Shown here: positions 38,636 to 61,869 of the stretch, piece after piece
How positions within the stretch are numbered: the stretch's first letter is position 1
Layout of the letters: each line of letters begins with the position of its first letter
Source of the DNA: Opitutales bacterium
Lineage (GTDB): Bacteria > Verrucomicrobiota > Verrucomicrobiia > Opitutales > PNEW01
Length of the DNA: 64,000 nucleotides
Assembly: GCA_965197745.1 (NCBI GenBank)
Contig: CBDANS010000006.1
Coordinates: 1,440,001 to 1,504,000 of the forward strand
Direction of reading: 5' to 3'
Notes under the pieces: generated by a model
What the model saw: the letters and a program-made list of their open reading frames with translations, nothing else
Told to the model about the DNA's origin: nothing
The model's database searches: none
Translations under genes and position numbers: made by a program

Positions 38636-39433
38636 TTATAATCCTAGATCTTTCATCAGTTGGATTTTTTTCATGCGCAACGGACCAGCGGTTTCAAATA
38701 TCCGATCGGTGAAGAGGCGGCCGGTATCCGGTGACCATTCCGCGCCATAAGACTTGTTTAAGCTGACGATGCGTTCGATTTCCCAATCCATGCGGGGATG
38801 CGTTCGCATCATCCATGCCATTTGCCGGCGTTTATCGCCACCGCCCCAGGAGGCATGCTGGATCCTCGTATTGAAGACAATCAAATCCCCTTTCTCAATC
38901 GTCAGTTCATACCTTCCGGGAAACTGGTTCGTGGGGTAACCTACTACCAGTTCGTCAATCTGTATTTTTTCGAAAGTATCGCTTAAGTGCAGCGGCCAAT
39001 GATGGCTTCCTGGAATGAAGCTTAAACATCCTTTACCGGGTTCGATTTCATCGAGGTAAAAAGTCTGTTTCATGTCAATCGCCGGCTCAGGCATATTGCC
39101 ATCGCGATGCCAGTTGGTATTTCCGAAGTGAATCTGCCCGTCAGAACTGCCATAGAAAATGCAATCCTCACCGAGGATATCTTCAGCGACGGCAGACAGC
39201 CTGGGATGGTCGAGTAGGTTATAAAAATAGGGGTCCGCTTCAATTAAGGGGATGATCACGCGATGCCCGTCGGGAAATATCCGGTGGCCGGGAGCTGAAT
39301 CATCGTCCTGCGCTTTATCCATGACCGTGTCAAATCGTTTGGAATACTCATCTATCTCTTCGTGGGTGAGCACCCCGGGAATCCTAAGGAAACCCAGCAG
39401 ATGAAAATGGGTTTTCTGGTCGTCTGTTAACAT
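38636..39433 (-). CDS. PhyH-family Fe(II)/2OG dioxygenase, copy 1
   Basis: WHRD, IPGSH, QHASWGG..RR. Confidence 0.9.
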   Translation of the reverse strand: MLTDDQKTHFHLLGFLRIPGVLTHEEIDEYSKRFDTVMDKAQDDDSAPGHRIFPDGHRVIIPLIEADPYFYNLLDHPRLSAVAEDILGEDCIFYGSSDGQIHFGNTNWHRDGNMPEPAIDMKQTFYLDEIEPGKGCLSFIPGSHHWPLHLSDTFEKIQIDELVVGYPTNQFPGRYELTIEKGDLIVFNTRIQHASWGGGDKRRQMAWMMRTHPRMDWEIERIVSLNKSYGAEWSPDTGRLFTDRIFETAGPLRMKKIQLMKDLGL

Positions 39434-39623
39434 GGTTTCAAATCCAGTAGATTAAATGGGATTAATGGTATTGATGCTCTATCCCATTCGGTTTTAAAAG
39501 GAAAATCGACTCGAATCAGCTATGTATTTTTTATTCTCACTACTAAGCTCTTGAATTCGACATGAGAAAGTGCTGCTTTCGTTAGATAGAATTTAAATCT
39601 GAACCATTAAACCTGTAGCTATT

Positions 39624-40529
39624 ATGGAATATCGTTCTATACCCGATACCGAGATTGAAGTCTCGACCCTCTGCCTCGGAACCATGACTTTCGGAGACCC
39701 GGTGAAAGAAAAGGAAGCTATCCACATCGTGGACTGGGCCCTGGATCACGGGGTAAACTTTATCGATACCGCGGACATGTATGAGGGCTACACGCGCACC
39801 ATGGGTTCTCCGGGCGGGGTCACCGAAGAAATACTCGGAAAAGCCTTAAAAGGTAAACGCGACCAAGCCATCGTGACAACAAAAGTAGGTAACCCGATTG
39901 GAGATGACTCTTACCAGGGAACAGGTCTCAGCCGCAGTCACATTATGCATCAGATCGACGCGAGTCTGACGCGTATGCAGACCGATTATACGGACTTCTA
40001 CCACTTGCACCGACCGGATCCGGATACTCCGCTGGAAGAATCAATCGCCACGATGGTGGATCTTATAAAAGCGGGTAAAGTACGCTATTGGGGGTTCTCA
40101 AATTTTGAAGTTGGGCAGATCCGTGAAATGCTTCAACTCTGCGAGACTAATAGCTGGCCGCGCCCCGTGATCAGTCAACCGAACTACAGTTGGTTGAATC
40201 GGAAGGTGGAAGAAGAGCATTTACCACTCTGTAAGCAAGAAGCCATAGCTGTGACCCCTTTTAAAGTCCTGGAAGGCGGATTGCTCACCGGTAAGTACCG
40301 TAAGGGGCAAGAAGCGCCCGAAGACAGTCGTAATAGTGAAAATCCGGGGTGGATAGCATTTGAAATGGACGATGATTTATTTACAGATCTGGATAATTTT
40401 GAAAGTGAAGCGAAGGGGAAATCCCGCAGTCCGGCACAGCACGCTGTCAACTGGGTATTGGAGCAGGATGGAATCGCTTCAGTAGTGCTCGGATTAAAGC
40501 GCACTGATCAGCTTGCTGATTTGCTTTAA
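39624..40529 (+). CDS. Aldo/keto reductase
   Basis: LGTMTFG, DTADMY, LHRPD, GKVRYWGFSN, GGLLTGKY. Confidence 0.93.
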   Translation: MEYRSIPDTEIEVSTLCLGTMTFGDPVKEKEAIHIVDWALDHGVNFIDTADMYEGYTRTMGSPGGVTEEILGKALKGKRDQAIVTTKVGNPIGDDSYQGTGLSRSHIMHQIDASLTRMQTDYTDFYHLHRPDPDTPLEESIATMVDLIKAGKVRYWGFSNFEVGQIREMLQLCETNSWPRPVISQPNYSWLNRKVEEEHLPLCKQEAIAVTPFKVLEGGLLTGKYRKGQEAPEDSRNSENPGWIAFEMDDDLFTDLDNFESEAKGKSRSPAQHAVNWVLEQDGIASVVLGLKRTDQLADLL

Positions 40530-40581
40530 AAAACGCATCTCATTGCCATTGACTGCAATCGTGTTTTCTGCACAATATAAA

Positions 40582-41406
40582 ATGATGCTGACAAAGGGAC
40601 AGATAGCTCATTTCGAATCATTCGGGTTTCTCGTCATGCGGCAGGTATTTTCGCCTGAGGAGATGAAATCGTACATTGAGGCAGCCGAGGAAATCTGGGC
40701 TGTTGATGAAGGAATGTCAGTCGGTAGCGGCGAGAACAATGGGGCTAATTCGGTTAGAGCGATTGTCGAAAAGCATCCCATACTGACATCGCTGGCGGGA
40801 GATGACCGTATCTATTTAACTCTTGAAAAAATACTGGGACCGGGATTCATTTGGGCATTTTCAGAAGGCCAGCGAGGGCGCATCAGCACCTCCTGGCATA
40901 ATGACCGTCCGGGTAAAAATCAGAATAAATATACCCGCATCAAAGTTCACCTTTACCTCGAACCAACGACGAAAGAGACCGGCGCCTTGCGCGTCATCCC
41001 CGGTTCTCATCGTTCCCCCTATCATGAATCTCTCGAGCCGCTCATGAATCGCCATATGCGAAAAAATGATGCAATGAATGGCGAAAAAGATGGGGCAGGA
41101 AATCTTCAAAACTTGCCCTTCGGTGTAGAGGGTCCAGACATACCCTGCTATGCTTTCGAATCCAATCCCGGTGATGTCATTTTTTTTCATCAGAATATAT
41201 TCCATGCCGTTTATGGCGGACTGGGAGAGGGGCGCAGGTATATTGCCATGAAATTCGCAGCGAAGCCGACGACCGATGAACACATCCGTTTAATTAAGGA
41301 ACATACAGAATATGTATTCCATCCCCATGAGGCTTTTCTGAACAGTGACCGTCCGCGTATCCGGGGGATGGTCGAAAACCTGGAAGCATTAGGGGCTAGT
41401 GTTTAA
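40582..41406 (+). CDS. PhyH-family dioxygenase, copy 2 (clade D)
   Basis: SEGQ, WHNDRPG, VIPGSH, FHAV, RRYIAMKFAAKP; start reassigned to 40582. Confidence 0.9.
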   Translation: MMLTKGQIAHFESFGFLVMRQVFSPEEMKSYIEAAEEIWAVDEGMSVGSGENNGANSVRAIVEKHPILTSLAGDDRIYLTLEKILGPGFIWAFSEGQRGRISTSWHNDRPGKNQNKYTRIKVHLYLEPTTKETGALRVIPGSHRSPYHESLEPLMNRHMRKNDAMNGEKDGAGNLQNLPFGVEGPDIPCYAFESNPGDVIFFHQNIFHAVYGGLGEGRRYIAMKFAAKPTTDEHIRLIKEHTEYVFHPHEAFLNSDRPRIRGMVENLEALGASV

Positions 41407-41549
41407 GACTAAATATTAATTATTCAGTTGCCAAATCACGCAAATAATCGAGACAAGATATGCATGGATTTTGTGAAGGTATGCGTAATAATTATACTTC
41501 GAAAAACAACAGGATTCCATTTTAATAGATAAAATAAAAAAGGTCATAT

Positions 41550-42371
41550 ATGTTAACGGAGCAACAGGTCTATCAATTTCACACCTTCGGTTTTCTTATT
41601 CTACGGAATATAATAACGGAAGAAGAACATAAGATTGTCAGTGAGGAAGTAGAAAAAGGTTACGCGAGGAAAGATAAAAGTGAATTCATAGGAAAAGAAC
41701 GTCTACAGTTGAACTGGACCAACCTTGTCCCTCACTGCCCATTCTTAACCTCATTGCTTGAAAACCAGCGGTTTTACGGAGTTGCGCAACAGCTCCTGGG
41801 AGAAGATGCCGTTGGATTTGACACTACATCCAACATTATGAAAGGAGACCGGACGACCTGGCATCCGGATGCCCCTGCCAATTTACAGGGATTAAAATTT
41901 ACCTTTTACCTCGACCCGCTCGACGGAGAGTCGGGCGCGCTTCGTATCATACCCGGATCCCATCAGGCCGGATTCAGTGATGCCATAAAGGAAGTTCGCT
42001 TAAAGGACAACAATCCCGGTCCCCCTGAAGATCCCGGACTCGCCATTACCGAGGTGCCCTGCCACATATGTGAGACCGGTCCCCGTGATGCCGTTATTAT
42101 GAACTATCTTAACTGGCATGCCAGTTGGCACGGTTCACCACGTCGCAGAATGGTTACCCTGAAATATTATAAAAACCCCAAAAGTCATGATGAAACCGAA
42201 GCACTACGCAAATTTTTAATCGGGGCAGTAGAGGACAGGAAAAAAAATAAAATGTCCATTCACCGTACCTATTCGGAATTCTGGCTTTCTAATCCTGAGA
42301 ACAGTCCGGTTCGCGCGCGCTGGATAGAGTGGTTGCAGAAATGGGGATTAATTGATACAATTGCAGCTTAG
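41550..42371 (+). CDS. PhyH-family dioxygenase, copy 3 (clade A)
   Basis: WHPD, IIPGSH, WHASW, RRM; C-terminal WLxNP...RARWIEWL. Confidence 0.92.
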   Translation: MLTEQQVYQFHTFGFLILRNIITEEEHKIVSEEVEKGYARKDKSEFIGKERLQLNWTNLVPHCPFLTSLLENQRFYGVAQQLLGEDAVGFDTTSNIMKGDRTTWHPDAPANLQGLKFTFYLDPLDGESGALRIIPGSHQAGFSDAIKEVRLKDNNPGPPEDPGLAITEVPCHICETGPRDAVIMNYLNWHASWHGSPRRRMVTLKYYKNPKSHDETEALRKFLIGAVEDRKKNKMSIHRTYSEFWLSNPENSPVRARWIEWLQKWGLIDTIAA

Positions 42372-42405
42372 AGCCAAAATTTTTATTAGTATAGGACGAA
42401 TACCC

Positions 42406-43275
42406 ATGATAACACAGAAACAGATCGATCAATATCATACCTTCGGTTGCCTCATTCTAAGGAATGTTCTCAGTGCAAAAGATATTGATAATCTGAATGC
42501 TGAATTTGAAGCCAAATTAGAGACAACCTTTCGTGGGAAAGCAAACGGGGGAAAGCCAATTCACTGCAGTTGGCCTAATTTAGGTCCGAGTACCCCTTTT
42601 ACCGCTTCCCTCTTGGAAGATCCACGGATTTACGGGGTCCCGGAAGCATTATTTGACGATCAAGTTTACGGAGTATCCTGTAATGCCACCAGTTTTATAG
42701 AAGATACCCCCTGGCATCCCGACTCGGATCATTTTCATCTGCACGGAATTAAAGTTGTCATTTATTTAGAGCCACTCAATGGTGATAACGGCGCCTTGCG
42801 TGTCATTCCCGGATCCCATCTGAATCCCTATCATGACGAATTACATGAGATCGGTATGTTAGCCGATTTTGGTAATCTCCCCCTGCCGAGCAGTCCCTAT
42901 CTAATTGAGTGTGGCCTCGGAATTAAAGATGTCCCCGCACTCATCTGCAGTGTAACCCCGGGTGATGTCATTGTCTTTAATTTTCGCATATGGCATGCCA
43001 GTACCGGGGGTAAATTTGACCGGCGCTTTATCTCGAATATGTTTATCAAGGATCCCGTTTCTCCCGATGAAAAAAAAGCGGTATCTGAGCTTGTCGAAAT
43101 TACAAAAAAAAACCGGGATAGACGTGCCAGGGATACATTTCCCAACCGGGGACCCGAGTACCATCCTGAATGGTTGTCCAATCCGGATAAAAATCATAAG
43201 CGTCAAAGAAACATCGATTGGATGCTGAAGAGGGGATACTTTGAAGTCGATGAAACGACATTGGCTAAATCCTGA
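42406..43275 (+). CDS. PhyH-family dioxygenase, copy 4 (clade B)
   Basis: WHPD, VIPGSH, WHAS, DRR; start reassigned to MITQKQ. Confidence 0.92.
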   Translation: MITQKQIDQYHTFGCLILRNVLSAKDIDNLNAEFEAKLETTFRGKANGGKPIHCSWPNLGPSTPFTASLLEDPRIYGVPEALFDDQVYGVSCNATSFIEDTPWHPDSDHFHLHGIKVVIYLEPLNGDNGALRVIPGSHLNPYHDELHEIGMLADFGNLPLPSSPYLIECGLGIKDVPALICSVTPGDVIVFNFRIWHASTGGKFDRRFISNMFIKDPVSPDEKKAVSELVEITKKNRDRRARDTFPNRGPEYHPEWLSNPDKNHKRQRNIDWMLKRGYFEVDETTLAKS

Positions 43276-43288
43276 AGATCAATAATTC

Positions 43289-44167
43289 ATGCTTAGCGAA
43301 CAACAGATACACCAATTCCATACCTTCGGATATCTTCTATTAAGGGATGTTTTCAGTGTGGATGAAGTCCAGAAATTAAACACAGAATTTGACGCTAAAT
43401 TAACAACCACTTCCGGGGGGAAATCGAAGGGTAAGAAATCGGAGCGTATGAGCTGGTCCAGCCTGGGCCCGGATACACCATTTACCTCATCCCTGATAGA
43501 GGATTCACGGATAACCAGTATTGTGGATTCATTATTCGCTCATGAATATTTCGGGATTTCCTGCAATGCCTCAAGTCTTGTCGGTGAAACAAACTGGCAC
43601 CCCGATGCTGACAATCAAAATATGCACGGGTTAAAGGTGGTTTCCTATTTGCAGTCACTTAATGGCGAAAGTGGCGCTTTGCGCGTTATTCCCGGATCAC
43701 ACCTTAACTCTTTTCACGACGATATTAAGAAGATCGAAATGCATGAACCTGAACATGACGGTCTCACGCAAACCGCCACCGTGACTGACTCCGGCCTCGG
43801 TCTGGAAATAGATGAAGTTCCAGCCTGCGCCTGTACCGTTAATCCGGGTGACCTCGTAGTCTTTGACTTTCGGATATGGCATGCCAGTTCCGGAGGGTCG
43901 GATGATCGCCGCATGATATCGATGATTTTTATTAAGGATGCCGATACCCCTGAAGAAAACGAAGCGATTGACGAAATTGTTCTTAAATCGCGCAGGAACC
44001 GGGCTCATCGCGCAAAAGCCGCCTTTGGAAAAAAGGGTTCGGAATACCACCCGGATTGGGTCGCTAATCCCGATAATAACCCGAGACGTCAGCGCTGGAT
44101 TGATTGGCTGCGGGAGAAAGGTTATTTCGAAGCATATGATGCGTCATTAATAGCATTTAATAATTAA
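43289..44167 (+). CDS. PhyH-family dioxygenase, copy 5 (clade B)
   Basis: WHPD, VIPGSH, WHAS, DRR. Confidence 0.92.
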   Translation: MLSEQQIHQFHTFGYLLLRDVFSVDEVQKLNTEFDAKLTTTSGGKSKGKKSERMSWSSLGPDTPFTSSLIEDSRITSIVDSLFAHEYFGISCNASSLVGETNWHPDADNQNMHGLKVVSYLQSLNGESGALRVIPGSHLNSFHDDIKKIEMHEPEHDGLTQTATVTDSGLGLEIDEVPACACTVNPGDLVVFDFRIWHASSGGSDDRRMISMIFIKDADTPEENEAIDEIVLKSRRNRAHRAKAAFGKKGSEYHPDWVANPDNNPRRQRWIDWLREKGYFEAYDASLIAFNN

Positions 44168-44178
44168 AAATATTAATT

Positions 44179-44997
44179 ATGCTGACCGAACAACAGATAC
44201 ACCAATTCCATACCTTCGGGTTCATCGTCTTAAAGAATATGTTAAGTGAGGACGAGCTTAAAATCGTCAATGAGGAATTCGAAAAGGGCTACGCCAAAAA
44301 AAATAAAAGTGAATTAATCGCCGGCGCGCGTGTTCAGCTGAACTGGTCGAACCTCGAACCTCACAGCCCCTTCACTGCTTCGCTGTTAGAGAATAAACGG
44401 TTTTACGGAATCGCGCAACAGCTCTTTGGAGAAGATGCAGTTGGCACTAATTCCCAATCCAATCATTACGCCGGTAATCGGAGCCCCTGGCACCCGGATG
44501 TGGGCCCTAATACTCACGGGTTCAAATTTACCTTTTATCTCTCACCGGTGGACGCCGATTCGGGAGCGCTGAGGGTCATTCCCGGTTCACACCGTCCGGA
44601 ATTCAGCGACATGATCAAAAAAGTACGATTAAAGGACAATGATCCTGGGCCACCTGAAGATCCGGGACTCGCGGTAAATGAAGTGCCCTTTTGTTCCTGC
44701 GACTCTCAACCGGGGGACGCGGTATTATTCAACTATTTAATCTGGCACAGCAGCTGGCATGGCTCCGATAACCGGCGCATGGTATCTCTGCAGTATTACA
44801 AGAACCCAAAGACGCCGGAAGAAATTGAGGCAGCGCGAAATACGGCAAAACATATTCGAGAACACCGGAAAGATAAATTGACGATTGACCGGGAGTACCC
44901 GGATTTTTGGGTTTCCAATCCGGAGAACAATCCCCTGCGCGCGCGCTGGATAGAGTGGCTGCGTGAATGGGGCTATATTGAATCCATTCCCGCTTAA
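44179..44997 (+). CDS. PhyH-family dioxygenase, copy 6 (clade A)
   Basis: WHPD, VIPGSH, WHSSW, NRR. Confidence 0.92.
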   Translation: MLTEQQIHQFHTFGFIVLKNMLSEDELKIVNEEFEKGYAKKNKSELIAGARVQLNWSNLEPHSPFTASLLENKRFYGIAQQLFGEDAVGTNSQSNHYAGNRSPWHPDVGPNTHGFKFTFYLSPVDADSGALRVIPGSHRPEFSDMIKKVRLKDNDPGPPEDPGLAVNEVPFCSCDSQPGDAVLFNYLIWHSSWHGSDNRRMVSLQYYKNPKTPEEIEAARNTAKHIREHRKDKLTIDREYPDFWVSNPENNPLRARWIEWLREWGYIESIPA

Positions 44998-45017
44998 TAA
45001 AATAAATTTAATATACG

Positions 45018-45836
45018 ATGCTAACCGAACAACAGATACACCAATTCCATACCTTCGGGTTCCTCGTCTTAAAGAACATTTTAAACGAGGACGAACTAAA
45101 GATCATCAATGAGGAATTCGAAAAGGGCTTGGCAAAAAAAGACAAAAGTGAATTAATCGCCGGCGCGCGCGTGCAGTTGAACTGGTCTAACCTGGAGTCT
45201 CAAAGTCCCTATACGGCCTCACTGTTGGAAGATAAGCGAATTCATAGGGTCGCGCAGCAGCTCTGGGGAGAAGATGTAATAGGAAAAAACTCACAGGCCA
45301 ACCATTACGCCGGTAACCGCAGTCCCTGGCACCCGGATGTTGGCCCTGATATACACGGGTGTAAATTCGTTTTTTATCTCTCACCTGTAGACGCCGATTC
45401 GGGAGCACTAAGGGTCATCCCCGGTTCACATCGTCCGGAGTTCAGCGATAGGATCAAAAAAGTACGATTAAAGGACAATGATCCCGGACCGCCTGAAGAC
45501 CCGGGCCTTGCGGTTAACGAAATTCCCTTTTGTTCCTGCGATTCTCAACCGGGTGACGCGGTACTGTTCAACTATTTGCTCTGGCATGCCAGCTGGCATG
45601 GTTCCGATAACCGGCGCATGGTATCCTTACAGTATTGGAAAAATCCCAAGACTCCTGAAGAAAAAGAAGCGATGGCAGCAATGGCGAGCGGTTTTGTGAA
45701 GAGAAGTCATGATAAATTATCCGTTGTTCAACCTTATCCGGATTTCTGGCTTTCCAATCCGGATAATAGTCCCCTGCGCGCGCGCTGGATAGAGTGGCTT
45801 AATGAATGGGGATTTATTGAATCCATGCCCGTCTAA
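45018..45836 (+). CDS. PhyH-family dioxygenase, copy 7 (clade A, recent duplicate of copy 6)
   Basis: Same length (272 aa) and long identical blocks with copy 6; WHPD, WHASW. Confidence 0.92.
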   Translation: MLTEQQIHQFHTFGFLVLKNILNEDELKIINEEFEKGLAKKDKSELIAGARVQLNWSNLESQSPYTASLLEDKRIHRVAQQLWGEDVIGKNSQANHYAGNRSPWHPDVGPDIHGCKFVFYLSPVDADSGALRVIPGSHRPEFSDRIKKVRLKDNDPGPPEDPGLAVNEIPFCSCDSQPGDAVLFNYLLWHASWHGSDNRRMVSLQYWKNPKTPEEKEAMAAMASGFVKRSHDKLSVVQPYPDFWLSNPDNSPLRARWIEWLNEWGFIESMPV

Positions 45837-45867
45837 ATTTACACGAATAATAGAGTGAAGATCGCCG

Positions 45868-46653: not shown

Positions 46654-46687
46654 ATATATCTAATCAATAATAGAAGGGGTAAAAGTT

Positions 46688-47518: not shown

Positions 47519-47541
47519 TAATGAAAATTAATCTGTAAAAT

Positions 47542-50969: not shown

Positions 50970-50970
50970 A

Positions 50971-52682: not shown

Positions 52683-52683
52683 A

Positions 52684-53529: not shown

Positions 53530-53550
53530 ATATCCTAAACAATAAATACT

Positions 53551-54408: not shown

Positions 54409-54428
54409 GTAACCCCGAAAATAATATT

Positions 54429-55289: not shown

Positions 55290-55304
55290 TCACAGGGTTA
55301 TATT

Positions 55305-56171
55305 ATGATCCAGGAAACTCACAGTCTTACCGAAGCGCAGGTCCAGCACTTTGAAACCTTCGGTTTTATAGTCCGTCGCCAGGTCTTCAGCCCGGATGAA
55401 ATTGACCGGATCAACAAGGAGTTTGATAAATATCTCGCGGCGATTAAAGAGGAATTTGAAAAGAAATCAGATCCCAGTACGCATCGCTGGCCTAATTGGT
55501 CAAACATGAATCCGGATACCCCTTATATGGCAAGTTTGTTGGAAGATCCGCGCATTTATGTTCCCACCGAACAATTACAGGGAGAAGACACGGTTCCCTT
55601 GTATTCCAATGCCAACAGCTTTAGATTTAACAGCAACTGGCATGCAGATACGCGGCAATGTCATTTGCCTATGCTTAAAAATCTCGTCTATCTGCAACCC
55701 ACGACCGGTGACCACGGATCTTTGCGTGTGATTCCAGGTTCGCATAAGAGTCCCCTCTACGATAATCTCCAACGCCTGAAGATGAGTCCCTCTGATGATA
55801 AGCAGTCGAAATCTTTAAAGGAATCCGGCATGCGTGGCGAAGATATTCCCGCTTATATATTCTGTTCGCAGCCAGGTGATGTCATTACCTTTAACATGAG
55901 ATTATGGCACGCGGCTTTTGGCGGATATGAAGACCGCAGGAACTGTTCCCTTGCCTTTTGCAGCAATCCCAAGACGGCAGAAGAAGAAGAAGATCTAAAA
56001 TCACAGTTAGAAAATGCCAAAACTTTGACAGACGGGCTGAAAATGGAATTGAAAGATTCGAAATACTACCACCCCTGGTGGTTGGATAATCCCGAGGGCA
56101 GTCCGAGACGCGCACGCTGGATACAATGGCTGGATGATAAGGGCTTTATTGAAGCGGTTAATAAGAATTAA
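55305..56171 (+). CDS. PhyH-family dioxygenase, copy 19 (clade C, WPNWSN subgroup)
   Basis: WHAD, WHAAFGG, DRRNCS. Confidence 0.92.
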   Translation: MIQETHSLTEAQVQHFETFGFIVRRQVFSPDEIDRINKEFDKYLAAIKEEFEKKSDPSTHRWPNWSNMNPDTPYMASLLEDPRIYVPTEQLQGEDTVPLYSNANSFRFNSNWHADTRQCHLPMLKNLVYLQPTTGDHGSLRVIPGSHKSPLYDNLQRLKMSPSDDKQSKSLKESGMRGEDIPAYIFCSQPGDVITFNMRLWHAAFGGYEDRRNCSLAFCSNPKTAEEEEDLKSQLENAKTLTDGLKMELKDSKYYHPWWLDNPEGSPRRARWIQWLDDKGFIEAVNKN

Positions 56172-56187
56172 CTTAAAGGATCCCATC

Positions 56188-57036
56188 ATCATAAAGGAAA
56201 AATACACGCTCACCGAAGAGCAGATCCAGCACTATGAAATCTTCGGTTTTCTTATCCGTCGTCAAGTATTCAGCTCTGAGGAAATTGAGAGAATCAACGG
56301 GGAGTTCGATAAACGTCTCGCTACCCTGAAACGTGAAAATGATCTGAAAGAAGATGACCAAATTCATAACTGGTGCAATCGCAATCCAGAAACACCTTAT
56401 GTGGCCAGCTTACTGGAGGATCCCCGCATTTACATACCTTCAGAGCAATTATTAGGAGAAGACGCCGTTCCCGTGTATTCCAATTCCAACAGCTATCGGG
56501 AAAACACTTCCTGGCACCCGGATTCGAAGGAGCGCCATTTACGATTGCTCAAAAATGTAACCTATCTGCAACCAACCTCCGCTGATCGCGGTTCTTTGCG
56601 TCTCATTCCCGGTTCACACAAGAGTCCCTTATTTGATGAGCTGCATCGGATCGGATTGAATATCTATGACGATGAGAACAAATCCAATTTTATGGAAGAA
56701 TCAGGTCTCCGAGGTGAAGATATTCCCTGCTATATATTCTCTTCTCAACCAGGCGATATCATTACCTTTAACCAGAACACATGGCATGCGGCTTATGGTG
56801 GTTACGAAGACCGAAGGACGTGCACCTTTAATTTCATCTGCAACCCCAAAACTGCTGAAGAAACAGCAGAACTGCGCGCCAAGGTGAAACATGCCGGGAG
56901 TATTAAAAAAAGACTGCGAACCCTGGGGCCACAATACCATCCGTGGTGGTTGGCCAATCCTGAAGGCAATATCAGGCGTGCGCGCTGGATAAAATGGTTG
57001 GAAGAGTGGGGTTTTGTCGAATCGATGAAGAATTAA
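56188..57036 (+). CDS. PhyH-family dioxygenase, copy 20 (clade C; ATC at the homologous start position)
   Basis: WHPD, WHAAYGG. IIKEKYTL aligns with MIQENYSL. Alternative ATG at 56134 lies inside copy 19. Confidence 0.88.
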   Translation: MIKEKYTLTEEQIQHYEIFGFLIRRQVFSSEEIERINGEFDKRLATLKRENDLKEDDQIHNWCNRNPETPYVASLLEDPRIYIPSEQLLGEDAVPVYSNSNSYRENTSWHPDSKERHLRLLKNVTYLQPTSADRGSLRLIPGSHKSPLFDELHRIGLNIYDDENKSNFMEESGLRGEDIPCYIFSSQPGDIITFNQNTWHAAYGGYEDRRTCTFNFICNPKTAEETAELRAKVKHAGSIKKRLRTLGPQYHPWWLANPEGNIRRARWIKWLEEWGFVESMKN

Positions 57037-57056
57037 TTAACCCCCAGAGTGATTTT

Positions 57057-57908
57057 ATGATCCAGGAAAATCACAATCTCATTGAAGAGCAGATCCAACA
57101 TTTTAAGACATTTGGTTTTCTTGTCCGCCGCCAGGTGTTCAGCGCGGAAGAAGTTGAGAGGACCAACGAGGAGTTCAGCCGCCGCCGCGCATTCATCCTC
57201 GCGGGGCTCAATGCTGATGAAAAAAAAGGTTTCAGAACATGGCCAATCCGAAATCCGAAAAGCCCGTATATCGCGAGTTTATCTGAAGACCCCCGAATTT
57301 ATGTGCCCTCAGAGCAACTCTTAGGTGAAGACTCCGTATTACTCCAGTCCAACTGCAACAGCTATAGGGTAGACACTGCCTGGCACTCGGATACGAAGGA
57401 TCGCCATTTGCGATTAATTAAAAATGTAATATATCTGCAACCCACCACTGCCGAACGTGGTGCCTTGCGTCTCATTCCCGGTTCACACATGAGCCCCTTA
57501 TACGATGATCTGGTAGGGATCGGCTTGGATCTTTATGTCAAAGATCAACAGTCCTATTTTCTGAAGGATTCCGAGTTTTGCGGTGAAGATATCCCCAGCT
57601 ATATATTTTCTTCACAGCCGGGCGACATTATCACTTTTGCCCAGTGTACCTGGCACGCGGCTTTTGGTAGTTTCGAAGACCGAAGGACGTGCACCTTTAA
57701 TTTCATCGGCAACCCAAAAACAGCTGAAGAAAAAGCGGAACTGCGTGCCATGGCGGAGCAAGCCGGGAGTCGGAGTTTTAAAGAATTACCGGTCCAGGGG
57801 CCCCAATGTCATCCGTGGTGGATGGCCAATTCTGAAGCCAATGCCAGGCGCGCGCGGTGGATTGAAAAGTTAGAAGAGTGGGGTTTTGTCGAAGCGGTGA
57901 AAATTTAA
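57057..57908 (+). CDS. PhyH-family dioxygenase, copy 21 (clade C, chimeric/drifting)
   Basis: Start reassigned to MIQENHNL; WHSD, WHAAFGS. Confidence 0.9.
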   Translation: MIQENHNLIEEQIQHFKTFGFLVRRQVFSAEEVERTNEEFSRRRAFILAGLNADEKKGFRTWPIRNPKSPYIASLSEDPRIYVPSEQLLGEDSVLLQSNCNSYRVDTAWHSDTKDRHLRLIKNVIYLQPTTAERGALRLIPGSHMSPLYDDLVGIGLDLYVKDQQSYFLKDSEFCGEDIPSYIFSSQPGDIITFAQCTWHAAFGSFEDRRTCTFNFIGNPKTAEEKAELRAMAEQAGSRSFKELPVQGPQCHPWWMANSEANARRARWIEKLEEWGFVEAVKI

Positions 57909-57981
57909 GGAGGGAATTTATCCCTTTATAGATAGGGGTATTACCTCTTCCAGCTCATAAAAGCAGCCTGACCTCTTTTGT

Positions 57982-58785
57982 CTAGTCGTCTCGGAAAGGA
58001 ATGAAGTCGGGAACTTCTTTTGCGCCCAGTCGCGGCAAGTCCTCAACCATCTGTCGTATACGTGGGCGATCGCTAGTTAAGAGGGTTTCTGCAGGTTCAA
58101 ATATATTCTTTTTATAATAACGCAGCGAGGCGAGATGCATGTCGGTCGTCGGTCGAGCCGCAAATTTTAGCGCAATATAACGCCGGCCTTTTTTTCCATT
58201 AAACATGGAATGCCAGAGACTCTGGCTGAAAAATAAGACATCACCCGGGCGACATTCAAAAGGAAAGCCGGGTATATCCGGTCCGGGGACATCGAATGGT
58301 TTAACATAATCTCCGTGCTGATGACGATTTTCCGGTTCTATTTGCCCATGAAGGGGCAGCCGATGGGAACCGGGTATCACGCGCAGGCAGCCATTATCTT
58401 TATCCAAGGGGTCGAGATAGAGCATGACTTTAATTCTGAGGTAGGAAACTTCCTCCTCATCACCGGGACGGTCAGGATGCCAGCCATGCTCACGATGATA
58501 GGTTACTTGTCCCTCAGATCCAGCCCAGACAAATCCAGGCCCGAGCAATCCCTCGATCGTGTCCTGGATGCGATCGTCATCGAGTAGTTCCAGCAGCGGG
58601 GAATGCCGTTCAACAAACTCATCTAATGATAACTCCTCGTCTTTCGAAGACTCTTTTTTTCTGTCATCCACCCATAATTTTTCGGCTTCGCTTGTTATCT
58701 TATCAATCTCTTCGGGGGTGAAAGCCTGGCGCAGGATAAGAAAGCCAAAGGCGTCAAAATGTGCTTTCTGTTCGGGAGCTATCAT
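57982..58785 (-). CDS. PhyH-family dioxygenase, copy 22 (clade D)
   Basis: SEGQ, WHPDRPG, WHSM, RRYIALKFAARP. Confidence 0.92.
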   Translation of the reverse strand: MIAPEQKAHFDAFGFLILRQAFTPEEIDKITSEAEKLWVDDRKKESSKDEELSLDEFVERHSPLLELLDDDRIQDTIEGLLGPGFVWAGSEGQVTYHREHGWHPDRPGDEEEVSYLRIKVMLYLDPLDKDNGCLRVIPGSHRLPLHGQIEPENRHQHGDYVKPFDVPGPDIPGFPFECRPGDVLFFSQSLWHSMFNGKKGRRYIALKFAARPTTDMHLASLRYYKKNIFEPAETLLTSDRPRIRQMVEDLPRLGAKEVPDFIPFRDD

Positions 58786-58837
58786 ATTCGGGCTCAGCTA
58801 ATTAATTATATTTAGATTATCAGGTAAAATCTATTGC

Positions 58838-59686
58838 TCAATTAATACTATTCTCTTCTCGTTGATGATAGAGTGAAGCTTTTAAATCATCACAATAGGG
58901 TATGAAGGCAGGTACTTTTTTTGCGCCCAGGCGTGGTAAATCCTCAACCATTCGGCGAATTTTGGGATTATCGCTTTTTAACAAGATATCTGCCGGTTCA
59001 AACATGTGCTTAGTATAATAGCGCAGGGAGGCGAGTTGCTTATCCATTAACGGACGCGCCGCAAATTTCAGCGCGATATAGCGCCGCCCTTTTGTCCCAT
59101 TGAACATGCCATGCCAGAGACTATGATTGAAAAATATAACATCACCCGGACGACATTCTAATGGAAAACCGGGCATATCCGGCCCAGTGATGTCGAAAGG
59201 CTTAACATGATCCTCGTGCTGGTGGTGTTCCTGCGGTTCTATTTGCCCATGAAGGGGTAGCTGATGGGAGCCCGGTATCACGCGCAGACATCCACTGTCT
59301 TTATCCAGGGGATCGAGGTAGATCATAACTTTAATTCTCTGATAGGAGAGTTCCTCTTCATCACCGGGTCTGTCCGTATGCCAACCATGGTAACGATGAC
59401 TGGTAACTTGTCCTTCAGATCCAGCAAAGATAAAATTAGGTCCGAGCAATCCCTCGATCGTCCCATGAATCCGATCGTCAACGAGAAGATTAATCAGTGT
59501 GGGACGCAGCTCAACGAACTCATCTGAACTTAACTCTTCGTCCTGCGAAGGACATTTCTTCCTGTGTTCACTCCAAATTGTTCCAGCTTCGCTTGTTATC
59601 TTTTCAATCTCTTCAGGTGAGAAAGCCTGACGGAGGATAAGAAATCCAAAGACGTCAAAATGTGCTTTCTGTTCAGAAGTTAACAT
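58838..59686 (-). CDS. PhyH-family dioxygenase, copy 23 (clade D, duplicate of copy 22)
   Basis: SEGQ, WHTDRPG, WHGM, RRYIALKFAARP. Confidence 0.92.
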   Translation of the reverse strand: MLTSEQKAHFDVFGFLILRQAFSPEEIEKITSEAGTIWSEHRKKCPSQDEELSSDEFVELRPTLINLLVDDRIHGTIEGLLGPNFIFAGSEGQVTSHRYHGWHTDRPGDEEELSYQRIKVMIYLDPLDKDSGCLRVIPGSHQLPLHGQIEPQEHHQHEDHVKPFDITGPDMPGFPLECRPGDVIFFNHSLWHGMFNGTKGRRYIALKFAARPLMDKQLASLRYYTKHMFEPADILLKSDNPKIRRMVEDLPRLGAKKVPAFIPYCDDLKASLYHQREENSIN

Positions 59687-59785: not shown

Positions 59786-60775
59786 ATGAAAAAGGTAATG
59801 GGAATAGATGGAGGAGGGACACAAACGCGTGCAATAATCCTTGATGAAAAGGGCCATTTTCTTGGTCTCGGGCAAGCCGGTCCTTCCAATCCCAATGCCG
59901 TAGAGCTCGAACAATCCCTGACCGCGATCAATGGAGCTATGGCCTGCGCCTGTGAAAGTGCAGAGGTAAAGTTAAATGAAATCGATGCTGTGTTCCTCGG
60001 AATTTCCGGGCTGCCGCGCGTTAATCGTGAAGCTTTCAAAAAAACATTGACGGAGAAACTATCGTTCACCCCATCGCAATCTTTTGCTATCGATCATGAT
60101 TTGCACATCGCCTTGACGGGTGGATTAGCCGCTGAGCCGGGAATGGTTCTCGTTGTCGGCACGGGATCGGCCTGTTATGGACTGAAGGAAGATGGCAGTC
60201 GCAGTCAGGCAGGCGGGTGGGGATACCTTGTTGATGATTTTGGCAGCGCCTATTGGATAGGATTGCAAGCGCTTGCCGCGGTCGCGCAATCCGCGGATAG
60301 CCGCTCCGGGCCCACGGCGCTTACCTTGGCGATCAAAGGGGCCTTAGAGATAAATGAGATGAACGAGTTAATAAGCCTTATCTATGACCCTGATTTTAGC
60401 CAGCAGGAGATAGCAGCACTGGCACCGCACGTTTTCTATGCGGTGAGTTCGGGTGACACTGCCGCTCTGGCCATCATTAATCGAGGGTGCAGGGAACTGG
60501 CGCGTATGGCGACAACCGTGGCCCGTAAACTCAATTGGAAAAATGAGCCTTTAAAAATTGTGATCACCGGCGGCGTGGCCCGCGCCAAAAAACAATTTAT
60601 GAACCCGCTGAAAGCAGCATTAAAAGCCAGACTGCCCCAGGCCAGGCTTATCAAGCCAATCCTTCCTCCCGTTTTCGGTGCTGCATTACTTGCTTATAAG
60701 ATGATAAATGTATCACCGGATAATTCACTTTTAGGGAAACTTAAGGAAGCAGCAAAAGCGAAAAAGCTGAGTTAG
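59786..60775 (+). CDS. BadF/BadG/BcrA/BcrD-type N-acetylglucosamine kinase-like sugar kinase
   Basis: GIDGGGTQT, VGTGS, GGWGYLVDDFGSAYWIG, TGGV. Confidence 0.9.
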   Translation: MKKVMGIDGGGTQTRAIILDEKGHFLGLGQAGPSNPNAVELEQSLTAINGAMACACESAEVKLNEIDAVFLGISGLPRVNREAFKKTLTEKLSFTPSQSFAIDHDLHIALTGGLAAEPGMVLVVGTGSACYGLKEDGSRSQAGGWGYLVDDFGSAYWIGLQALAAVAQSADSRSGPTALTLAIKGALEINEMNELISLIYDPDFSQQEIAALAPHVFYAVSSGDTAALAIINRGCRELARMATTVARKLNWKNEPLKIVITGGVARAKKQFMNPLKAALKARLPQARLIKPILPPVFGAALLAYKMINVSPDNSLLGKLKEAAKAKKLS

Positions 60776-60861
60776 GATCACCGGGTGGATGATGGGATTG
60801 CGGAATTGCGAATGCGGATTTCGGATTGTTCCTGACGGTTATTAATTTCGTAATATTCGAT

Positions 60862-60951
60862 TTGTCATTGCGAGAAGCAGTGCGCCACGGTCGGCTGATA
60901 GCCTCCCTCGCAATGACAAGAGGAGGTGGAACGCGCTGTCCCTAACGCGTT
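60862..60951. repeat. Palindromic element (13-bp IR TTGTCATTGCGAG) followed by a GGTGGA-type REP
   Basis: IR arms at 60862-60874 and 60907-60919; GGTGGAACGCGCTGTCCCTAACGCGTT at 60925-60951. Confidence 0.75.
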
Positions 60952-61104
60952 GAGGATGAAACAATTAAAGAAACGCGACGAAGCGACAATGCTATCGAAG
61001 CTCCTGCCTTGGGTTAATATCCGTATAACAAGGATTGGTATTTAAGTATTGAAAGCAGAATTAAACAGGATAAATTAGAAACAGAAATTAAAGAAAGAGG
61101 ACAG

Positions 61105-61869
61105 ATGGTTACGCAGGAACAGTTGAATCACTACTGGGATAAGGGATGGGTCGTCGTCGAAGGGGTATTCGATCCTGCCGAGGTTGATCGCATCGCAGAA
61201 AGAGCCACGACCATTATTGAAGAGGAGATTAAGGATCCCAATATTCCCGCCGTGGCAGGTGAACGATTGGAAAATGGAGAGATCATTCCCCGTAAATTAA
61301 TGAACGCATTTTTCAAACATCATTCATTTCAGGAATTCGTTCTTAATGACCGGCTCAAAAAGGTAATCGAGATGTTTATAAAGGGCACCCCACTATTGTT
61401 TGCGGAACAGATACTCATGAAGCCGCCTCATCACGGGGGTCCCAAACCCTACCACCAGGATAATTTTCATTTTCAGTGTTTTCCCGCCGATCATGTAATT
61501 ACGGCCTGGATCGCGCTCGATGATGTAGGTGAAGAAAATGGGTGCCTGCGCTATATCAGTGGATCACACAAGGAGGGAATGATCCCCCACTTCCCGATGG
61601 AAAATGAACCTTACAATAAAATACCTGTTGAAGACCGCATAGATTTATCAAAAGAGGAGCTGGCACCAGTAGACAAGGGGGGTGTGGTCTTTCATCACGG
61701 ATATACATTACACAGTTCGCACCGCAATCATTCCGACCGCTGGCGAAGGGGGTACGCCACCCACTGGATAACGCCTGCTGTCAGCCGCAAGAATGGAGAT
61801 CTCGATGGCGCTGTTTTTAACGACGAACGTTATCGATCATTTCTCTCGAATTTAAGTCATAAAGAATAA
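61105..61869 (+). CDS. PhyH-family dioxygenase, copy 24 (canonical PHYHD1-like type)
   Basis: MKPP..GG.KPYHQD, WIALDD...ENGCL, GSH, TLHSSHRN.SDRWRR. Confidence 0.93.
   Translation: MVTQEQLNHYWDKGWVVVEGVFDPAEVDRIAERATTIIEEEIKDPNIPAVAGERLENGEIIPRKLMNAFFKHHSFQEFVLNDRLKKVIEMFIKGTPLLFAEQILMKPPHHGGPKPYHQDNFHFQCFPADHVITAWIALDDVGEENGCLRYISGSHKEGMIPHFPMENEPYNKIPVEDRIDLSKEELAPVDKGGVVFHHGYTLHSSHRNHSDRWRRGYATHWITPAVSRKNGDLDGAVFNDERYRSFLSNLSHKE

Follow-up and report, generated by a model that had tools for sequence, protein, structure and literature searches.

An old island of 24 PhyH-type genes maintained in a marine family of Opitutales (Verrucomicrobiota)

Genome-wide expansion of the PhyH genes has been described in Poribacteria, where two of them are linked to phnY/phnZ (Kamke 2014, in the part of that paper available to us); the first-pass annotation of the DNA studied here had described that expansion correctly. 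An excerpt of a second study interprets the PhyH genes of SAR202 as alpha-oxidation genes (PMC5395668). At the level of single enzymes, the 2-oxoglutarate (2OG) dioxygenase KanJ yields a 2'-oxo amino sugar, which is then reduced by the reductase KanK (PMC5533434, again in part). In the literature searched we found no published description of a conserved PhyH mega-array.

Content and reading of the array

What does the array contain? We scanned the 30 ORFs from 35104–63031 of the window, the whole 64 000-nucleotide stretch analysed, with PF05721 at a cut-off of 22 bits. Twenty-four ORFs, c01 to c24, scored between 36.8 and 134.7 bits and make up the array at 38636–61869 (table 1). The other six are an aldo/keto reductase (AKR), a BadF/NagK-like ATPase, GNAT, DUF4432, MR_MLE and FmdA-like ORFs. 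The order is c01(–), AKR(+), c02–c21(+, 20 copies), c22 and c23(–), BadF(+), c24(+). Both the 24 paralogs in about 23 kb and the 20 consecutive plus-strand copies of the first-pass annotation are thus borne out. It had also claimed that HxD, the distal His and the 2OG-binding Arg are kept throughout. H109, D111, H198, R207 and R208 (c13 numbering) are indeed invariant throughout the 24, and so is a G-S-H motif. No copy is broken, as had been stated: each aligns as an intact single ORF to at least 236 of the 276 positions of a custom HMM, and 23 of them to at least 271. The decayed genes reported at the left of the window are equally real (AcrB C-terminal, integrase, DUF748/AsmA and His_Phos_1 fragments).

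Across the 4.45-Mb genome there are 168 PhyH ORFs, a density at which chance predicts about 0.9 per 23.2 kb (Poisson P(≥24) < 1e-24). Two of its loci, L088 and L089, contain fragments of PhyH ORFs and an SSF gene that is split. No other cluster of more than four occurs in this genome, and no such run was seen in 79 loci from other taxa, in a genome of Poribacteria or in one of Chloroflexota.

Pairwise identity among the 24 copies ranges from 17 to 81%. There are two main clades, c03–c21 and c02/c22/c23; c01 and c24 are separate lineages with 17–29% identity to the remaining copies. Judged by sequence, the array genes are not one uniform paralog set, and c24 is outside the tandem-duplication family. 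No ortholog of c24 was found in the syntenic regions examined of three sister genomes. No copy contains a hydrophobic segment (maximum Kyte–Doolittle 19-residue mean 1.33), and all are predicted to be soluble, cytoplasmic proteins of about 31 kDa. The AF2 model of c13 (pLDDT 89.9, pTM 0.87) has a predicted PhyH-type jelly-roll fold; its top Foldseek matches are all PhyH-type enzymes (TM 0.55–0.63). The invariant triad and Arg pair, together with this model, suggest that the copies are catalytically competent.

Are the genes read together? With the starts of c02, c04, c12, c16 and c21 reset to the conserved N-terminus, the spacers from c03 to c21 are, in order and leaving aside the c19/c20 junction, 34, 13, 11, 20, 31, 34, 23, 11, –29, 17, 1, 20, 1, 21, 20, 15 and 20 nt; the c02–c03 gap is 143 nt. 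The earlier description of 1–34 nt spacers with a single 29-nt overlap consequently stands after start correction, except at c19/c20. There, c20 has ATC-ATC-ATA at the conserved start, the only core copy without an ATG at that point and without a 1:1 ortholog. Its start may be the ATG at 56134, which gives a 38-nt overlap with c19, or a non-canonical codon lying 16 nt past c19. Neither promoter-like consensus sites (38 versus 31.5 ± 6.2 in shuffles) nor terminator-like sites (23 versus 21.7 ± 5.4) are enriched. No plus-strand terminator-like match falls between array genes, in agreement with the claim that the array has no obvious terminator. Since a Shine–Dalgarno-like motif is not evident upstream of most copies, and the promoter and terminator scans gave no signal, it is from the spacing that we infer a single transcript; the architecture would be compatible with one.

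Table 1. Positions of the array genes and their neighbours in the window. G001, G002 and G003 are genomes of three other species of the same family; bit scores of PhyH copies are for PF05721.
Feature	Coordinates	Strand	Evidence
FmdA/AmdA-like amidase-family gene, last of divergent minus-strand unit	35104..36030	-	PF03069 89 bits; G001 ortholog 94% identical, dN/dS 0.070
Enolase-superfamily MR_MLE, acid-sugar dehydratase-like	36204..37340	-	PF13378 + PF02746; G001 ortholog 97% identical, dN/dS 0.027
DUF4432 protein, synteny anchor	37361..38611	-	PF14486 339 bits
c01, separate lineage, 24-29% identity to c02-c23	38636..39433	-	67.9 bits; 1:1 ortholog in 3/3 sister genomes, dN/dS 0.042
Divergent c01/AKR intergenic region, 190 nt, putative promoter region for both units	39434..39623	.	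Position only
Aldo/keto reductase, first gene of plus-strand run	39624..40529	+	PF00248 226.6 bits; G001 ortholog 87% identical, dN/dS 0.076
c02, subfamily with c22 and c23 (45-49% identity)	40582..41406	+	65.7 bits; start corrected; dN/dS 0.166
c03	41550..42371	+	36.8 bits; dN/dS 0.129 vs G001
c04	42406..43275	+	56.7 bits; start corrected; dN/dS 0.139
c05	43289..44167	+	53.9 bits; dN/dS 0.129
c06	44179..44997	+	58.0 bits; dN/dS 0.057
c07	45018..45836	+	63.2 bits; dN/dS 0.136
c08	45868..46653	+	57.2 bits; dN/dS 0.140
c09	46688..47518	+	58.2 bits; dN/dS 0.085
c10, first of c10-c21 sub-clade (support 0.987)	47542..48405	+	43.3 bits; dN/dS 0.090
c11, C-terminal tail overlaps c12 start by 29 nt	48417..49310	+	50.2 bits; dN/dS 0.082
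c12	49282..50127	+	51.8 bits; start corrected; dN/dS 0.114
c13, modelled representative	50145..50969	+	51.7 bits; dN/dS 0.235
c14, 1 nt after c13	50971..51816	+	55.7 bits; dN/dS 0.169
c15	51837..52682	+	45.8 bits; dN/dS 0.171 vs G001
c16, 1 nt after c15	52684..53529	+	42.4 bits; start corrected; dN/dS 0.064
c17	53551..54408	+	49.9 bits; dN/dS 0.161
c18	54429..55289	+	56.2 bits; reciprocal-best with G002_17, dN/dS 0.239; none with any G001 copy
c19	55305..56171	+	51.9 bits; dN/dS 0.152
c20	56134..57036	+	39.5 bits; no reciprocal-best match in G001, G002, G003
c21, last of co-oriented run	57057..57908	+	37.4 bits; start corrected; dN/dS 0.149
c22, convergent with c21	57982..58785	-	67.8 bits; 75% identity to c23; dN/dS 0.152
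c23	58838..59686	-	71.0 bits; dN/dS 0.291, array maximum
BadF/BcrAD-type ATPase, N-acetylglucosamine-kinase-like	59786..60775	+	PF01869 140.8 bits; ortholog 78% identical, dN/dS 0.139
c24, canonical PhyH of different lineage, 17-22% identity to others	61105..61869	+	134.7 bits

Assembly, age and origin

Could the array be an artefact of concatenated strain variants, or a set of neutral duplicates heading to decay? Other genes of this genome are decaying (the left-window fragments; L088, L089), and c20 has no canonical start codon. However, strain-variant concatenation is unlikely because the identity of the copies is far below strain level. Contigs from four runs of three studies cover all 30 bins of 39500–59400, with no alternative joints. 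The unitigs listed bridge at least 12 gene junctions, and those of X1, X3 and X5 show zero differences. With four independent assemblies and four read sets from the three studies in agreement, misassembly is ruled out.

Three further species of this Opitutales family carry syntenic arrays, of 24, 22 and 14 copies; that of G001 is on a single 4.49-Mb contig. In all three genomes a DUF4432 ortholog, 80–85% identical, adjoins the array. The co-oriented runs vary from 12 to 21 copies among the four species, two genera, over which the copies form near 1:1 colinear orthogroups; all 84 are intact. Against G001 the median dN/dS of orthologs is 0.139 (range 0.042–0.291, 21/21 reciprocal-best pairs); the medians against G002 and G003 are 0.130 and 0.113, and six flanking genes give 0.027–0.139. 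Every reciprocal-best pair is at or below 0.29, nowhere near 1, which upholds the earlier view of a selected array and leaves artefact or non-adaptive amplification scarcely credible. We conclude from these sequence comparisons that the copies have been kept as separate orthologs since before the split of the two genera, under purifying selection. The array is a genuine PhyH gene island, long established and maintained in this marine family.

How did it arise? Clade c03–c21 has a support of 0.991. Paralog identity declines with distance along the array (Spearman rho –0.573, a value as low as which none of 5000 permutations gave), the nearest paralog is at most two positions away for 13 of the 19 core copies, and the closest pair is c06/c07 (81% identity). 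The core probably grew step by step, through tandem duplications that started from a single Fe(II)/2OG oxygenase gene. Members of its clade are scattered at other sites in the genome, and a Caldilineaceae homolog is 74% identical to c14. The array may thus be a source of new paralogs, dispersed in the genome and, for one lineage, in Caldilineaceae.

Candidate substrates

If the copies are kept apart by selection, do they differ where substrates would bind? Among 263 scored columns, 46 are fixed inside orthogroups with at least four states among the 17 orthogroups. Many of these, located by sequence motif rather than by distance in three dimensions, lie beside the catalytic motifs: the x of HxD and position +1, the residues after PGSH, and three residues before the distal His. 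The active-site pockets have probably diverged between paralogs.

The array is flanked by DUF4432, MR_MLE, AKR and NagK-like kinase genes, with no transporter or regulator gene inside the locus. The top NCBIfam match of the MR_MLE gene is talarate/galactarate dehydratase (144 bits, below the 500-bit cut-off); the BadF-type gene scores 148 bits against NagK_SO3507 (cut-off 370), and neither gene is assigned to a subtype. In other PhyH islands the 57 non-PhyH ORFs scanned include three sulfatases (SGSH_C), five GFO/IDH/MocA, three SDR, two polysaccharide deacetylases, PIG-L, two BNR, GH32, MR_MLE and two SSF–NanM fusion transporters. In other phyla, clade members adjoin GH127, GH67-like, BNR_2, GHL10, DUF4432, MR_MLE and Zn-ADH genes; a Dehalococcoidia locus (L033) again pairs DUF4432 with a member of the clade. 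The neighbourhoods are mixed, and also hold amidases, aminotransferases, methyltransferases, a luciferase-like monooxygenase and eukaryote-like repeat proteins. By gene content the bacterium looks like a marine sponge symbiont.

EvdO1, EvdO2, HygX, AviO1 and SnoK, all of which act on sugar moieties, are among the sequence and fold matches. Judged by gene neighbourhood alone, and despite its mixed character and the absence of a transporter or regulator gene from the locus, sugars are the most likely substrates. We lean, though not heavily, towards a selectively kept tandem island predicted to supply one hydroxylase for each of a set of related imported, probably sugar-derived compounds. Transcription from the divergent c01/AKR region would cover AKR and c02–c21 in one or two long mRNAs. 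Each enzyme, with O2 and 2OG, would hydroxylate its own member of a series of imported small molecules, most likely decorated sugars or products of glycan breakdown that stem from the host matrix. Where the hydroxylated carbon bears a substituent, a methyl, sulfate, amine or acyl group would be freed and a carbonyl left. The latter might then be reduced by the co-encoded AKR and by the numerous reductases of the GFO/IDH/MocA and SDR types; from there the MR_MLE dehydratase and the sugar kinase would pass the product into central metabolism. Of the first-pass proposals, an oxygenase library remains plausible given the 46 paralog-specific columns, but the context points to imported compounds derived from sugars or glycans, in a bacterium associated with a host, and not to bulk seawater dissolved organic matter.

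Might the library instead be directed at non-sugar compounds of host or microbial origin? The enzymes would then hydroxylate lipophilic or secondary metabolites made by the host or its co-symbionts, such as terpenoids, sterols, branched lipids and alkaloids, either to detoxify them or to use them as carbon sources. The fold matches FtmOx1, PrhA, AndA and SptF tailor terpenoid or alkaloid natural products, the PhyH that gave the family its name acts on branched acyl-CoA, and the PhyH islands also hold an alpha/beta hydrolase, a luciferase-like monooxygenase and a protein of glyoxalase fold. The alpha-oxidation reading of the SAR202 genes, in the excerpt cited (PMC5395668), points the same way. 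Yet the genes adjoining the array include no acyl-CoA ligase or lyase and none for beta-oxidation; the nearest of this kind, a 3-hydroxyacyl-CoA dehydrogenase gene (31982–32929), is 5.7 kb upstream, beyond unrelated genes. What recurs in the neighbourhoods, in this genome as in other phyla, are glycoside hydrolases, sulfatases, deacetylases and oxidoreductases of sugar type, and we consider this alternative rather unlikely.

By sequence the closest characterised relatives are EctD, GriE and PhyH, whose substrates (ectoine, leucine and an acyl-CoA, respectively) are not sugars, which counts against the sugar reading. Among solved structures the best sequence matches are EctD (E 4.8e-20) and leucine hydroxylase 5nch, as hydroxylation of osmolytes, amino acids or phosphonates (ectoine, betaines, proline or leucine, 2-aminoethylphosphonate) for N or P scavenging would suggest. 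A weak match of c24 to the methylphosphonate hydroxylase model (46.8 bits, cut-off 500) and an amidase, aminotransferases and PhoX near some clade members are of the same tenor. So are the phnY/phnZ link and the scavenging kind of role proposed for some Poribacteria genes (Kamke 2014, part consulted). But the array copies reach only 19–36 bits against the ectoine hydroxylase model (cut-off 336.5), the window has no HD-phosphohydrolase (phnZ-type) or ect gene, and so few substrates could hardly account for twenty specificities. Such a role is improbable.

Twenty co-oriented genes with tiny spacers do look like a pathway operon, and PhyH-type enzymes commonly tailor products, so the oxygenases could act in sequence on one scaffold to give a highly oxidised natural product. 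This idea, raised by the first-pass annotation as iterative tailoring, is disfavoured, and we hold it highly improbable. The 53 window ORFs scanned include no scaffold-forming enzyme (no PKS or NRPS, and no core gene for a terpene or RiPP), run length varies among species in a way that is incompatible with a fixed pathway, single clade members turn up in catabolic loci both in this phylum and in others, and the genome-wide total of PhyH ORFs also tells against it.

The array has the look of a toolkit whose enzymes oxidise related compounds of one family, probably derived from sugars. For its pairing of PhyH enzymes with an aldo/keto reductase, the oxygenase and reductase KanJ/KanK, as far as the excerpt goes (PMC5533434), offer a precedent. 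The Poribacteria expansion is genome-wide (Kamke 2014, same part); the organism here is a member of the Opitutales with a 24-gene array.

An intact and conserved array of PhyH genes

Between 35104 and 63031, 24 of 30 scanned open reading frames (ORFs) match PF05721, the Pfam model for PhyH, at 36.8–134.7 bits against a cut-off of 22 bits. The first-pass annotation had counted 24 PhyH genes, 20 of them consecutive and co-oriented, and both counts stand. First comes c01, on the minus strand; it is followed by an aldo/keto reductase gene, c02–c21 on the plus strand, c22 and c23 on the minus strand, a BadF/NagK-like ATPase gene, and c24. Once five start codons had been shifted to the conserved N-terminus, each copy measured 254–300 aa, and the spacers within the core, c03–c21, were 1–34 nt with a single overlap of 29 nt (c11/c12), exactly as first described. 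The exceptional copy is c20, which has Ile codons where the others have the conserved start, so that its start is either an ATG within c19, with an overlap of 38 nt, or a non-canonical codon. In an alignment of all copies H109, D111, H198, R207 and R208 are invariant (24 of 24), so the earlier statement that the HxD motif, the distal His and the Arg are kept throughout was correct. So too was the claim that no copy is internally broken, each one spanning the family HMM, built from the copies, within one ORF. Four lineages are represented: c03–c21; c02, c22 and c23; c01; and c24.

The spacing of the aldo/keto reductase gene and c02–c21 fits a putative single transcription unit. Scans of the array for promoter and terminator consensus sequences gave nothing exceeding shuffles, and a hairpin in the gap between the convergent c21 and c22 was no better than shuffled sequence (z 0.05).

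Could the array be an artefact, strain variants having been strung together by misassembly? The first-pass annotation had named this among the outcomes that would refute it, with long reads or read depth as a proposed check. Pairwise identity among the 24 copies is 17–81% (median 37%), which excludes collapsed strain variants. In four public runs, which come from three studies, contigs cover each of the 30 bins of 39500–59400 and show no alternative joints; the best-covering run may be the source sample, the remaining runs being separate samples. The Logan contig pieces listed for three of the runs show zero differences from the window, and the listed pieces bridge at least 12 gene junctions; they are short (0.9–2.4 kb), none spans the whole array, and they speak to presence and local junctions only. 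This divergence, this coverage and the syntenic arrays of sister genomes rule out misassembly.

How old is the array? Searches with a core copy and with the neighbouring DUF4432 protein each locate the syntenic locus in G001, G002 and G003, three sister genomes of the same Opitutales family; with the genome under study, G000, they make up four species in two genera. Their syntenic regions contain 24, 22 and 14 intact PhyH ORFs, respectively, with co-oriented runs of 21, 19 and 12 compared with 20 in G000. The G001 assembly is one contig of 4,492,227 bp. When the 84 array copies are placed in a tree, the orthogroups come out near 1:1, and their order along the array is identical in all four genomes. 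Most of the array thus existed before the two genera diverged, and concerted evolution has not occurred. There is no ortholog of c20 in the sister arrays, the c12 group has one extra copy in G001, and the G003 array lacks many of the copies.

That the copies are under selection, as had been supposed, is supported by the dN/dS ratios of reciprocal-best orthologs (Nei–Gojobori). The median is 0.139 against G001 (21 pairs, range 0.042–0.291), 0.130 against G002 (21 pairs, 0.042–0.239) and 0.113 against G003 (12 pairs, 0.053–0.155). Six flanking non-PhyH genes have ratios of 0.027–0.139; the copies are thus constrained, just somewhat less than their neighbours. The dS of array orthologs against G001 is 0.19–1.6, mostly 0.4–0.7, and varies about eight-fold among copies (c13, 0.19; c23, 0.24; c15, 0.28; c16, 1.2; c01, 1.6). 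Some copies may have undergone recombination or gene conversion between lineages.

The further apart two copies of c03–c21 lie, the lower their identity (rho -0.573; a value as low arose in 0 of 5000 permutations), and adjacent pairs average 58.7% identity versus 46.8% over all pairs. Such decay is a prediction of stepwise local duplication. The array shows birth-and-death evolution without concerted evolution. We conclude that this tandem array is genuine and ancient and that selection maintains it.

Family membership, fold and pocket

A PF05721 match and the HxD...H triad (H109, D111, H198) place all 24 copies in the PhyH family, and the two invariant downstream arginines, R207 and R208, are both candidate contacts for the C5 carboxylate of 2OG. 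A profile search of solved structures matched EctD, SnoK, three entries titled phytanoyl-CoA dioxygenase, PHYHD1, leucine hydroxylase, human PhyH and EvdO2 (E 4.8e-20 to 8.8e-12). The AF2 model of c13 (pLDDT 89.9, pTM 0.87), the one copy modelled, has a predicted jelly-roll (double-stranded beta-helix) fold. With Foldseek it aligned to PhyH-type structures at TM 0.55–0.63 and 14–20% identity, with at least 500 matches at E <= 0.001, those listed all being PhyH-type enzymes. The copies fit the Fe(II)/2OG-dependent oxygenase family, and oxidation with 2OG and O2 is predicted from their sequences.

The jelly-roll, the HxD...H triad and the predicted 2OG dependence are those of EctD (4mhr, 3emr), SnoK/SnoN, EvdO1/EvdO2/HygX/AviO1, GriE (5nch), PHYHD1, PhyH (2a1x) and FtmOx1, at profile E-values of 4.8e-20 to 1e-9. 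Unlike these characterised enzymes, the array proteins bear a conserved C-terminal helical extension of ~70 residues (consensus YHPxWLxNPxxNPRRxRWIxWLxxWGF), beyond the Pfam match, which stops near residue 205. The curated NCBIfam models assigned no array copy, none reaching a cut-off, and a protein atlas search returned generic PhyH clusters only. Given the low identity, the extension and the lack of an NCBIfam assignment, a substrate is not transferable from the characterised enzymes.

Three specific assignments were rejected. For ectoine hydroxylase EctD (TIGR02408, cut-off 336.5 bits) six of the 24 copies were scanned; four scored 19.0–36.4 bits and two gave no match. A 2OG halogenase of the SyrB2/CytC3 type would have HxA/G, whereas all 24 copies have HxD, and TIGR01762 gave 19–24 bits against a cut-off of 226. 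As a PhnY-type methylphosphonate/2-AEP hydroxylase, c24 scored 46.8 against 500 bits (NF052437), and the genes next to it encode a BadF-type ATPase and a GNAT protein, with no HD-phosphohydrolase.

By a crude Kyte–Doolittle measure every copy lacks a hydrophobic segment; the proteins are therefore probably cytoplasmic, acting on imported small molecules. Of 263 scored alignment columns, 46 do not vary inside an orthogroup but show four or more states across the 17 orthogroups. Judged by sequence position, many of these paralog-specific columns adjoin HxD, follow PGSH or precede the distal His. With some 20 intact, co-located and individually conserved paralogs whose pocket-adjacent residues have diverged, the array is a compact test set for PhyH function.

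PhyH genes beyond the array

The genome of G000 (4.45 Mb, seven contigs, 45% G+C) gave 153 matches to the Pfam PhyH model, with 150 of 173 candidates scored, and 168 ORFs match the HMM built from the array copies. The same Pfam model matched none of 14 control genomes. When genes separated by gaps of up to 1.5 kb are grouped, the PhyH genes form 72 singletons, 18 pairs, eight triples, three quadruples and one group of 24. Chance does not account for the group of 24. Among 41 genomes of the order, G000 included, 13 have a PhyH match, and large numbers are restricted to five genomes, four in this family and one in another (first-look candidates 173, 228, 230, 122 and 94).

Is the arrangement found elsewhere? 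In 79 fetched loci of ~20 kb there were at most four PhyH ORFs each and the longest same-strand run was three; one of these loci is another part of G001, and the rest are from Caldilineaceae, Poribacteria, Latescibacterota, Gemmatimonadota, Chloroflexota and others. One Chloroflexota chromosome of 3.7 Mb has 73 matches (85 of 85 candidates scored) and a longest run of four. In the data covered, which are samples and not a survey, only this Opitutales family has the mega-array. A literature search, thin on subscription journals, turned up neither a tandem PhyH array nor a PhyH expansion in Opitutales; sponge-associated Opitutales are reportedly the subject of a 2020 paper by Sizikov et al. The organisation as a conserved mega-array appears to be new, while genome-wide PhyH expansion was already known. 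To our knowledge the array is among the longest bacterial tandem runs of one enzyme family.

A wider tree of 369 sequences joined the 84 array copies to 137 other PhyH ORFs of G000 and 148 ORFs from loci of other taxa, this outside sampling being the best 80 loci of one scan. The c03–c21 clade (support 0.991) contains 68 array copies, 15 dispersed G000 copies and 11 sequences of other phyla. Its c10–c21 sub-clade (0.987) contains 43 array copies, five dispersed copies and five Caldilineaceae sequences. The latter, one from each of five Caldilineaceae (Chloroflexota) species, are 65–74% identical to c10–c16, the top identity being to c14, and form a group with support 0.998. This group is nested in three successive clades that are otherwise Opitutales-only (0.964, 0.942 and 0.987); its immediate sister node has a support of 0.27. 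We read the nesting as export, the Caldilineaceae copies seeming to have left the array lineage by a cross-phylum transfer. The array appears to seed both dispersed copies and such a transfer.

Other features of the window and of the PhyH islands of G000 are collected in the table. The remnants at the left of the window lie in a stretch of lower G+C (0.40–0.43 at 6–18 kb) with long non-coding gaps. The broken PhyH and transporter genes of two islands contrast with the fully intact array. The fusion of a NanM-like domain to a symporter is an unusual transporter–enzyme combination. Eukaryote-like repeat proteins near the array and other islands fit a host-associated lifestyle.

Features of the window (bare coordinates), of PhyH islands L085, L088 and L089 and contigs C6 and C7 of G000, and of Caldilineaceae loci L006–L010
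Feature	Location	Strand	Remark
PhyH array, c01–c24	38636-61869		
DUF4432 gene	37361-38611	-	synteny anchor
Aldo/keto reductase gene	39624-40529	+	
Ankyrin repeat protein	34196-35089		beside array
Gene remnants	1517-2323; 3094-3519; 3866-4732; 11992-12561; 16315-17058		include AcrB C-terminal fragment (profile 802-1020 of 1021), two integrase-core fragments or IS3-like transposase, His_Phos_1 fragment, DUF748/AsmA fragment (positions 16-180 of 1037)
ORFs without Pfam or NCBIfam match	5130-7070; 29176-31593	-; -	646 and 805 aa
BlaR1-type M56 peptidase fused to TonB C-terminal domain	7216-9773	-	BlaI/Penicillinase_R repressor gene directly upstream
LRR, RCC1, Ig_7 proteins	L085:13080-15573; L085:3885-10119		near other PhyH islands
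Sodium:solute symporter with N-terminal NanM/Kelch beta-propeller	L088:16413-19082; L089:7644-10226 (C7)		N-acetylneuraminate-epimerase-like; both in PhyH islands
Three short adjacent PhyH ORFs and SSF transporter split in two	L088:3868-5620; L089:12078-13660 (C7)		broken genes; PhyH ORFs 230, 154, 191 aa
PhyH match with internal TAG	C7:1567696-1568286		outside array
Two PhyH matches per open frame	C6:1070676-1072079; C6:1101953-1103512; C7:1229385-1230794		542-584 aa; candidate fusions, first-look search
C6:1101953 pair under start-codon ORF calling	L085:1807-2616; L085:2746-3540		two separate genes
Caldilineaceae PhyH gene	L006–L010, ~10001-10849 each		adjoins GH127 and GH67-like genes

Gene context, a possible role and known systems

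What might the array act upon? It is flanked by genes for DUF4432, MR_MLE dehydratase-like, FmdA-like, aldo/keto reductase and NagK-like kinase proteins, and all flanking genes tested have orthologs in the syntenic region of G001. For comparison, 57 non-PhyH ORFs in seven other PhyH-rich stretches of G000 include three sulfatases with an N-sulphoglucosamine sulphohydrolase C-terminal domain, five GFO/IDH/MocA oxidoreductases, three SDRs, two polysaccharide deacetylases, one PIG-L deacetylase, two BNR proteins, one GH32, one MR_MLE gene, two Na+/solute symporters fused to NanM-like domains, and ABC binding proteins, along with unrelated genes and eukaryote-like repeat proteins. In other phyla, clade members adjoin GH127, GH67-like hydrolases, MR_MLE and Zn-ADH (Caldilineaceae), DUF4432 and Zn-ADH (Dehalococcoidia), BNR_2 proteins on both sides (Latescibacterota), and GHL10 and SDR genes. 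From these sugar- and glycan-type neighbours, here and in other phyla, we infer that the substrates are sugar-derived. Hydroxylation by a PhyH enzyme at a substituted carbon would yield a carbonyl, which the co-encoded reductases could then handle.

A bolder reading, and one that we think improbable, makes the array a conserved 'gene nursery' for non-hydrolytic glycan processing, in which co-transcribed PhyH enzymes strip decorations, reductases restore the sugar and new specificities are exported. By C-H hydroxylation each PhyH enzyme would free host-derived sugars of a decoration of its own, be it methyl, sulfate, amino or acyl, the sugar being restored by paired reductases. Specificities born in the array would pass to other loci and, within the sponge microbiome, across phyla. 

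Should oxidative de-decoration hold true, an oxygen-dependent route would be added to marine glycan turnover. It has been clear since 2014 that in some sponge symbionts no protein domain is commoner than PhyH; expression and screening of the array copies and of their orthologs in three more species would make its role there, a question of symbiont metabolism, directly testable.

KanJ is a putative member of the PhyH family, and is absent from the 59 solved-structure matches of the profile search. In the KanJ/KanK pair a 2OG/Fe dioxygenase turns a substituted sugar carbon into a ketone, which an NAD(P)H-dependent reductase then reduces (Sucipto et al. 2012, cited in PMC5533434). The same enzyme pairing is proposed here for the PhyH copies and the aldo/keto reductase. 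As described, however, KanJ/KanK is biosynthetic (kanamycin), a single pair with one substrate, unlike the array.

In SAR202 Chloroflexota, catabolic oxygenases have likewise expanded into many paralogs, mainly flavin monooxygenases dispersed in the genome, with recalcitrant deep-sea dissolved organic matter as the proposed substrate. The idea is shared, in that numerous diverged paralogs of one oxidative family would widen the range of organic compounds open to attack by a marine heterotroph, and enolase-superfamily genes go with the oxygenases in both SAR202 and G000. The SAR202 expansions are the subject of Landry et al. 2017 (PMC5395668) and reportedly of Saw et al. 2020. In the relevant passage of the former PhyH figures solely in a putative alpha-oxidation, and a tandem mega-array is not described.

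A close likeness is to the sponge-symbiont 'Candidatus Poribacteria', whose PhyH expansion the first-pass annotation had rightly named. There PhyH is the most abundant Pfam domain, at >1.9% of genes versus <0.049% in all other genomes then available, and its 305 sequences form 193 clusters at 60% identity, mostly of unknown function (Kamke et al. 2014, PMC3909097). G000 shows an expansion of this type, with PhyH above ~1.9% and high paralog diversity: at least 3.2% of its ORFs are PhyH (168 among 5170 stop-to-stop ORFs of at least 120 aa). Both have the same PF05721 family at an extreme gene share, highly diverged paralogs mostly without known function, and eukaryote-like repeat proteins, and Poribacteria include members of the array's own PhyH clade. 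G000, however, belongs to a different phylum, Verrucomicrobiota (order Opitutales). Of 151 matches on one Poribacteria chromosome of 7 Mb, where 150 of 257 candidates were scored, the 150 listed lie scattered in groups of about three, whereas G000 has 24 in 23 kb, conserved copy for copy across species.
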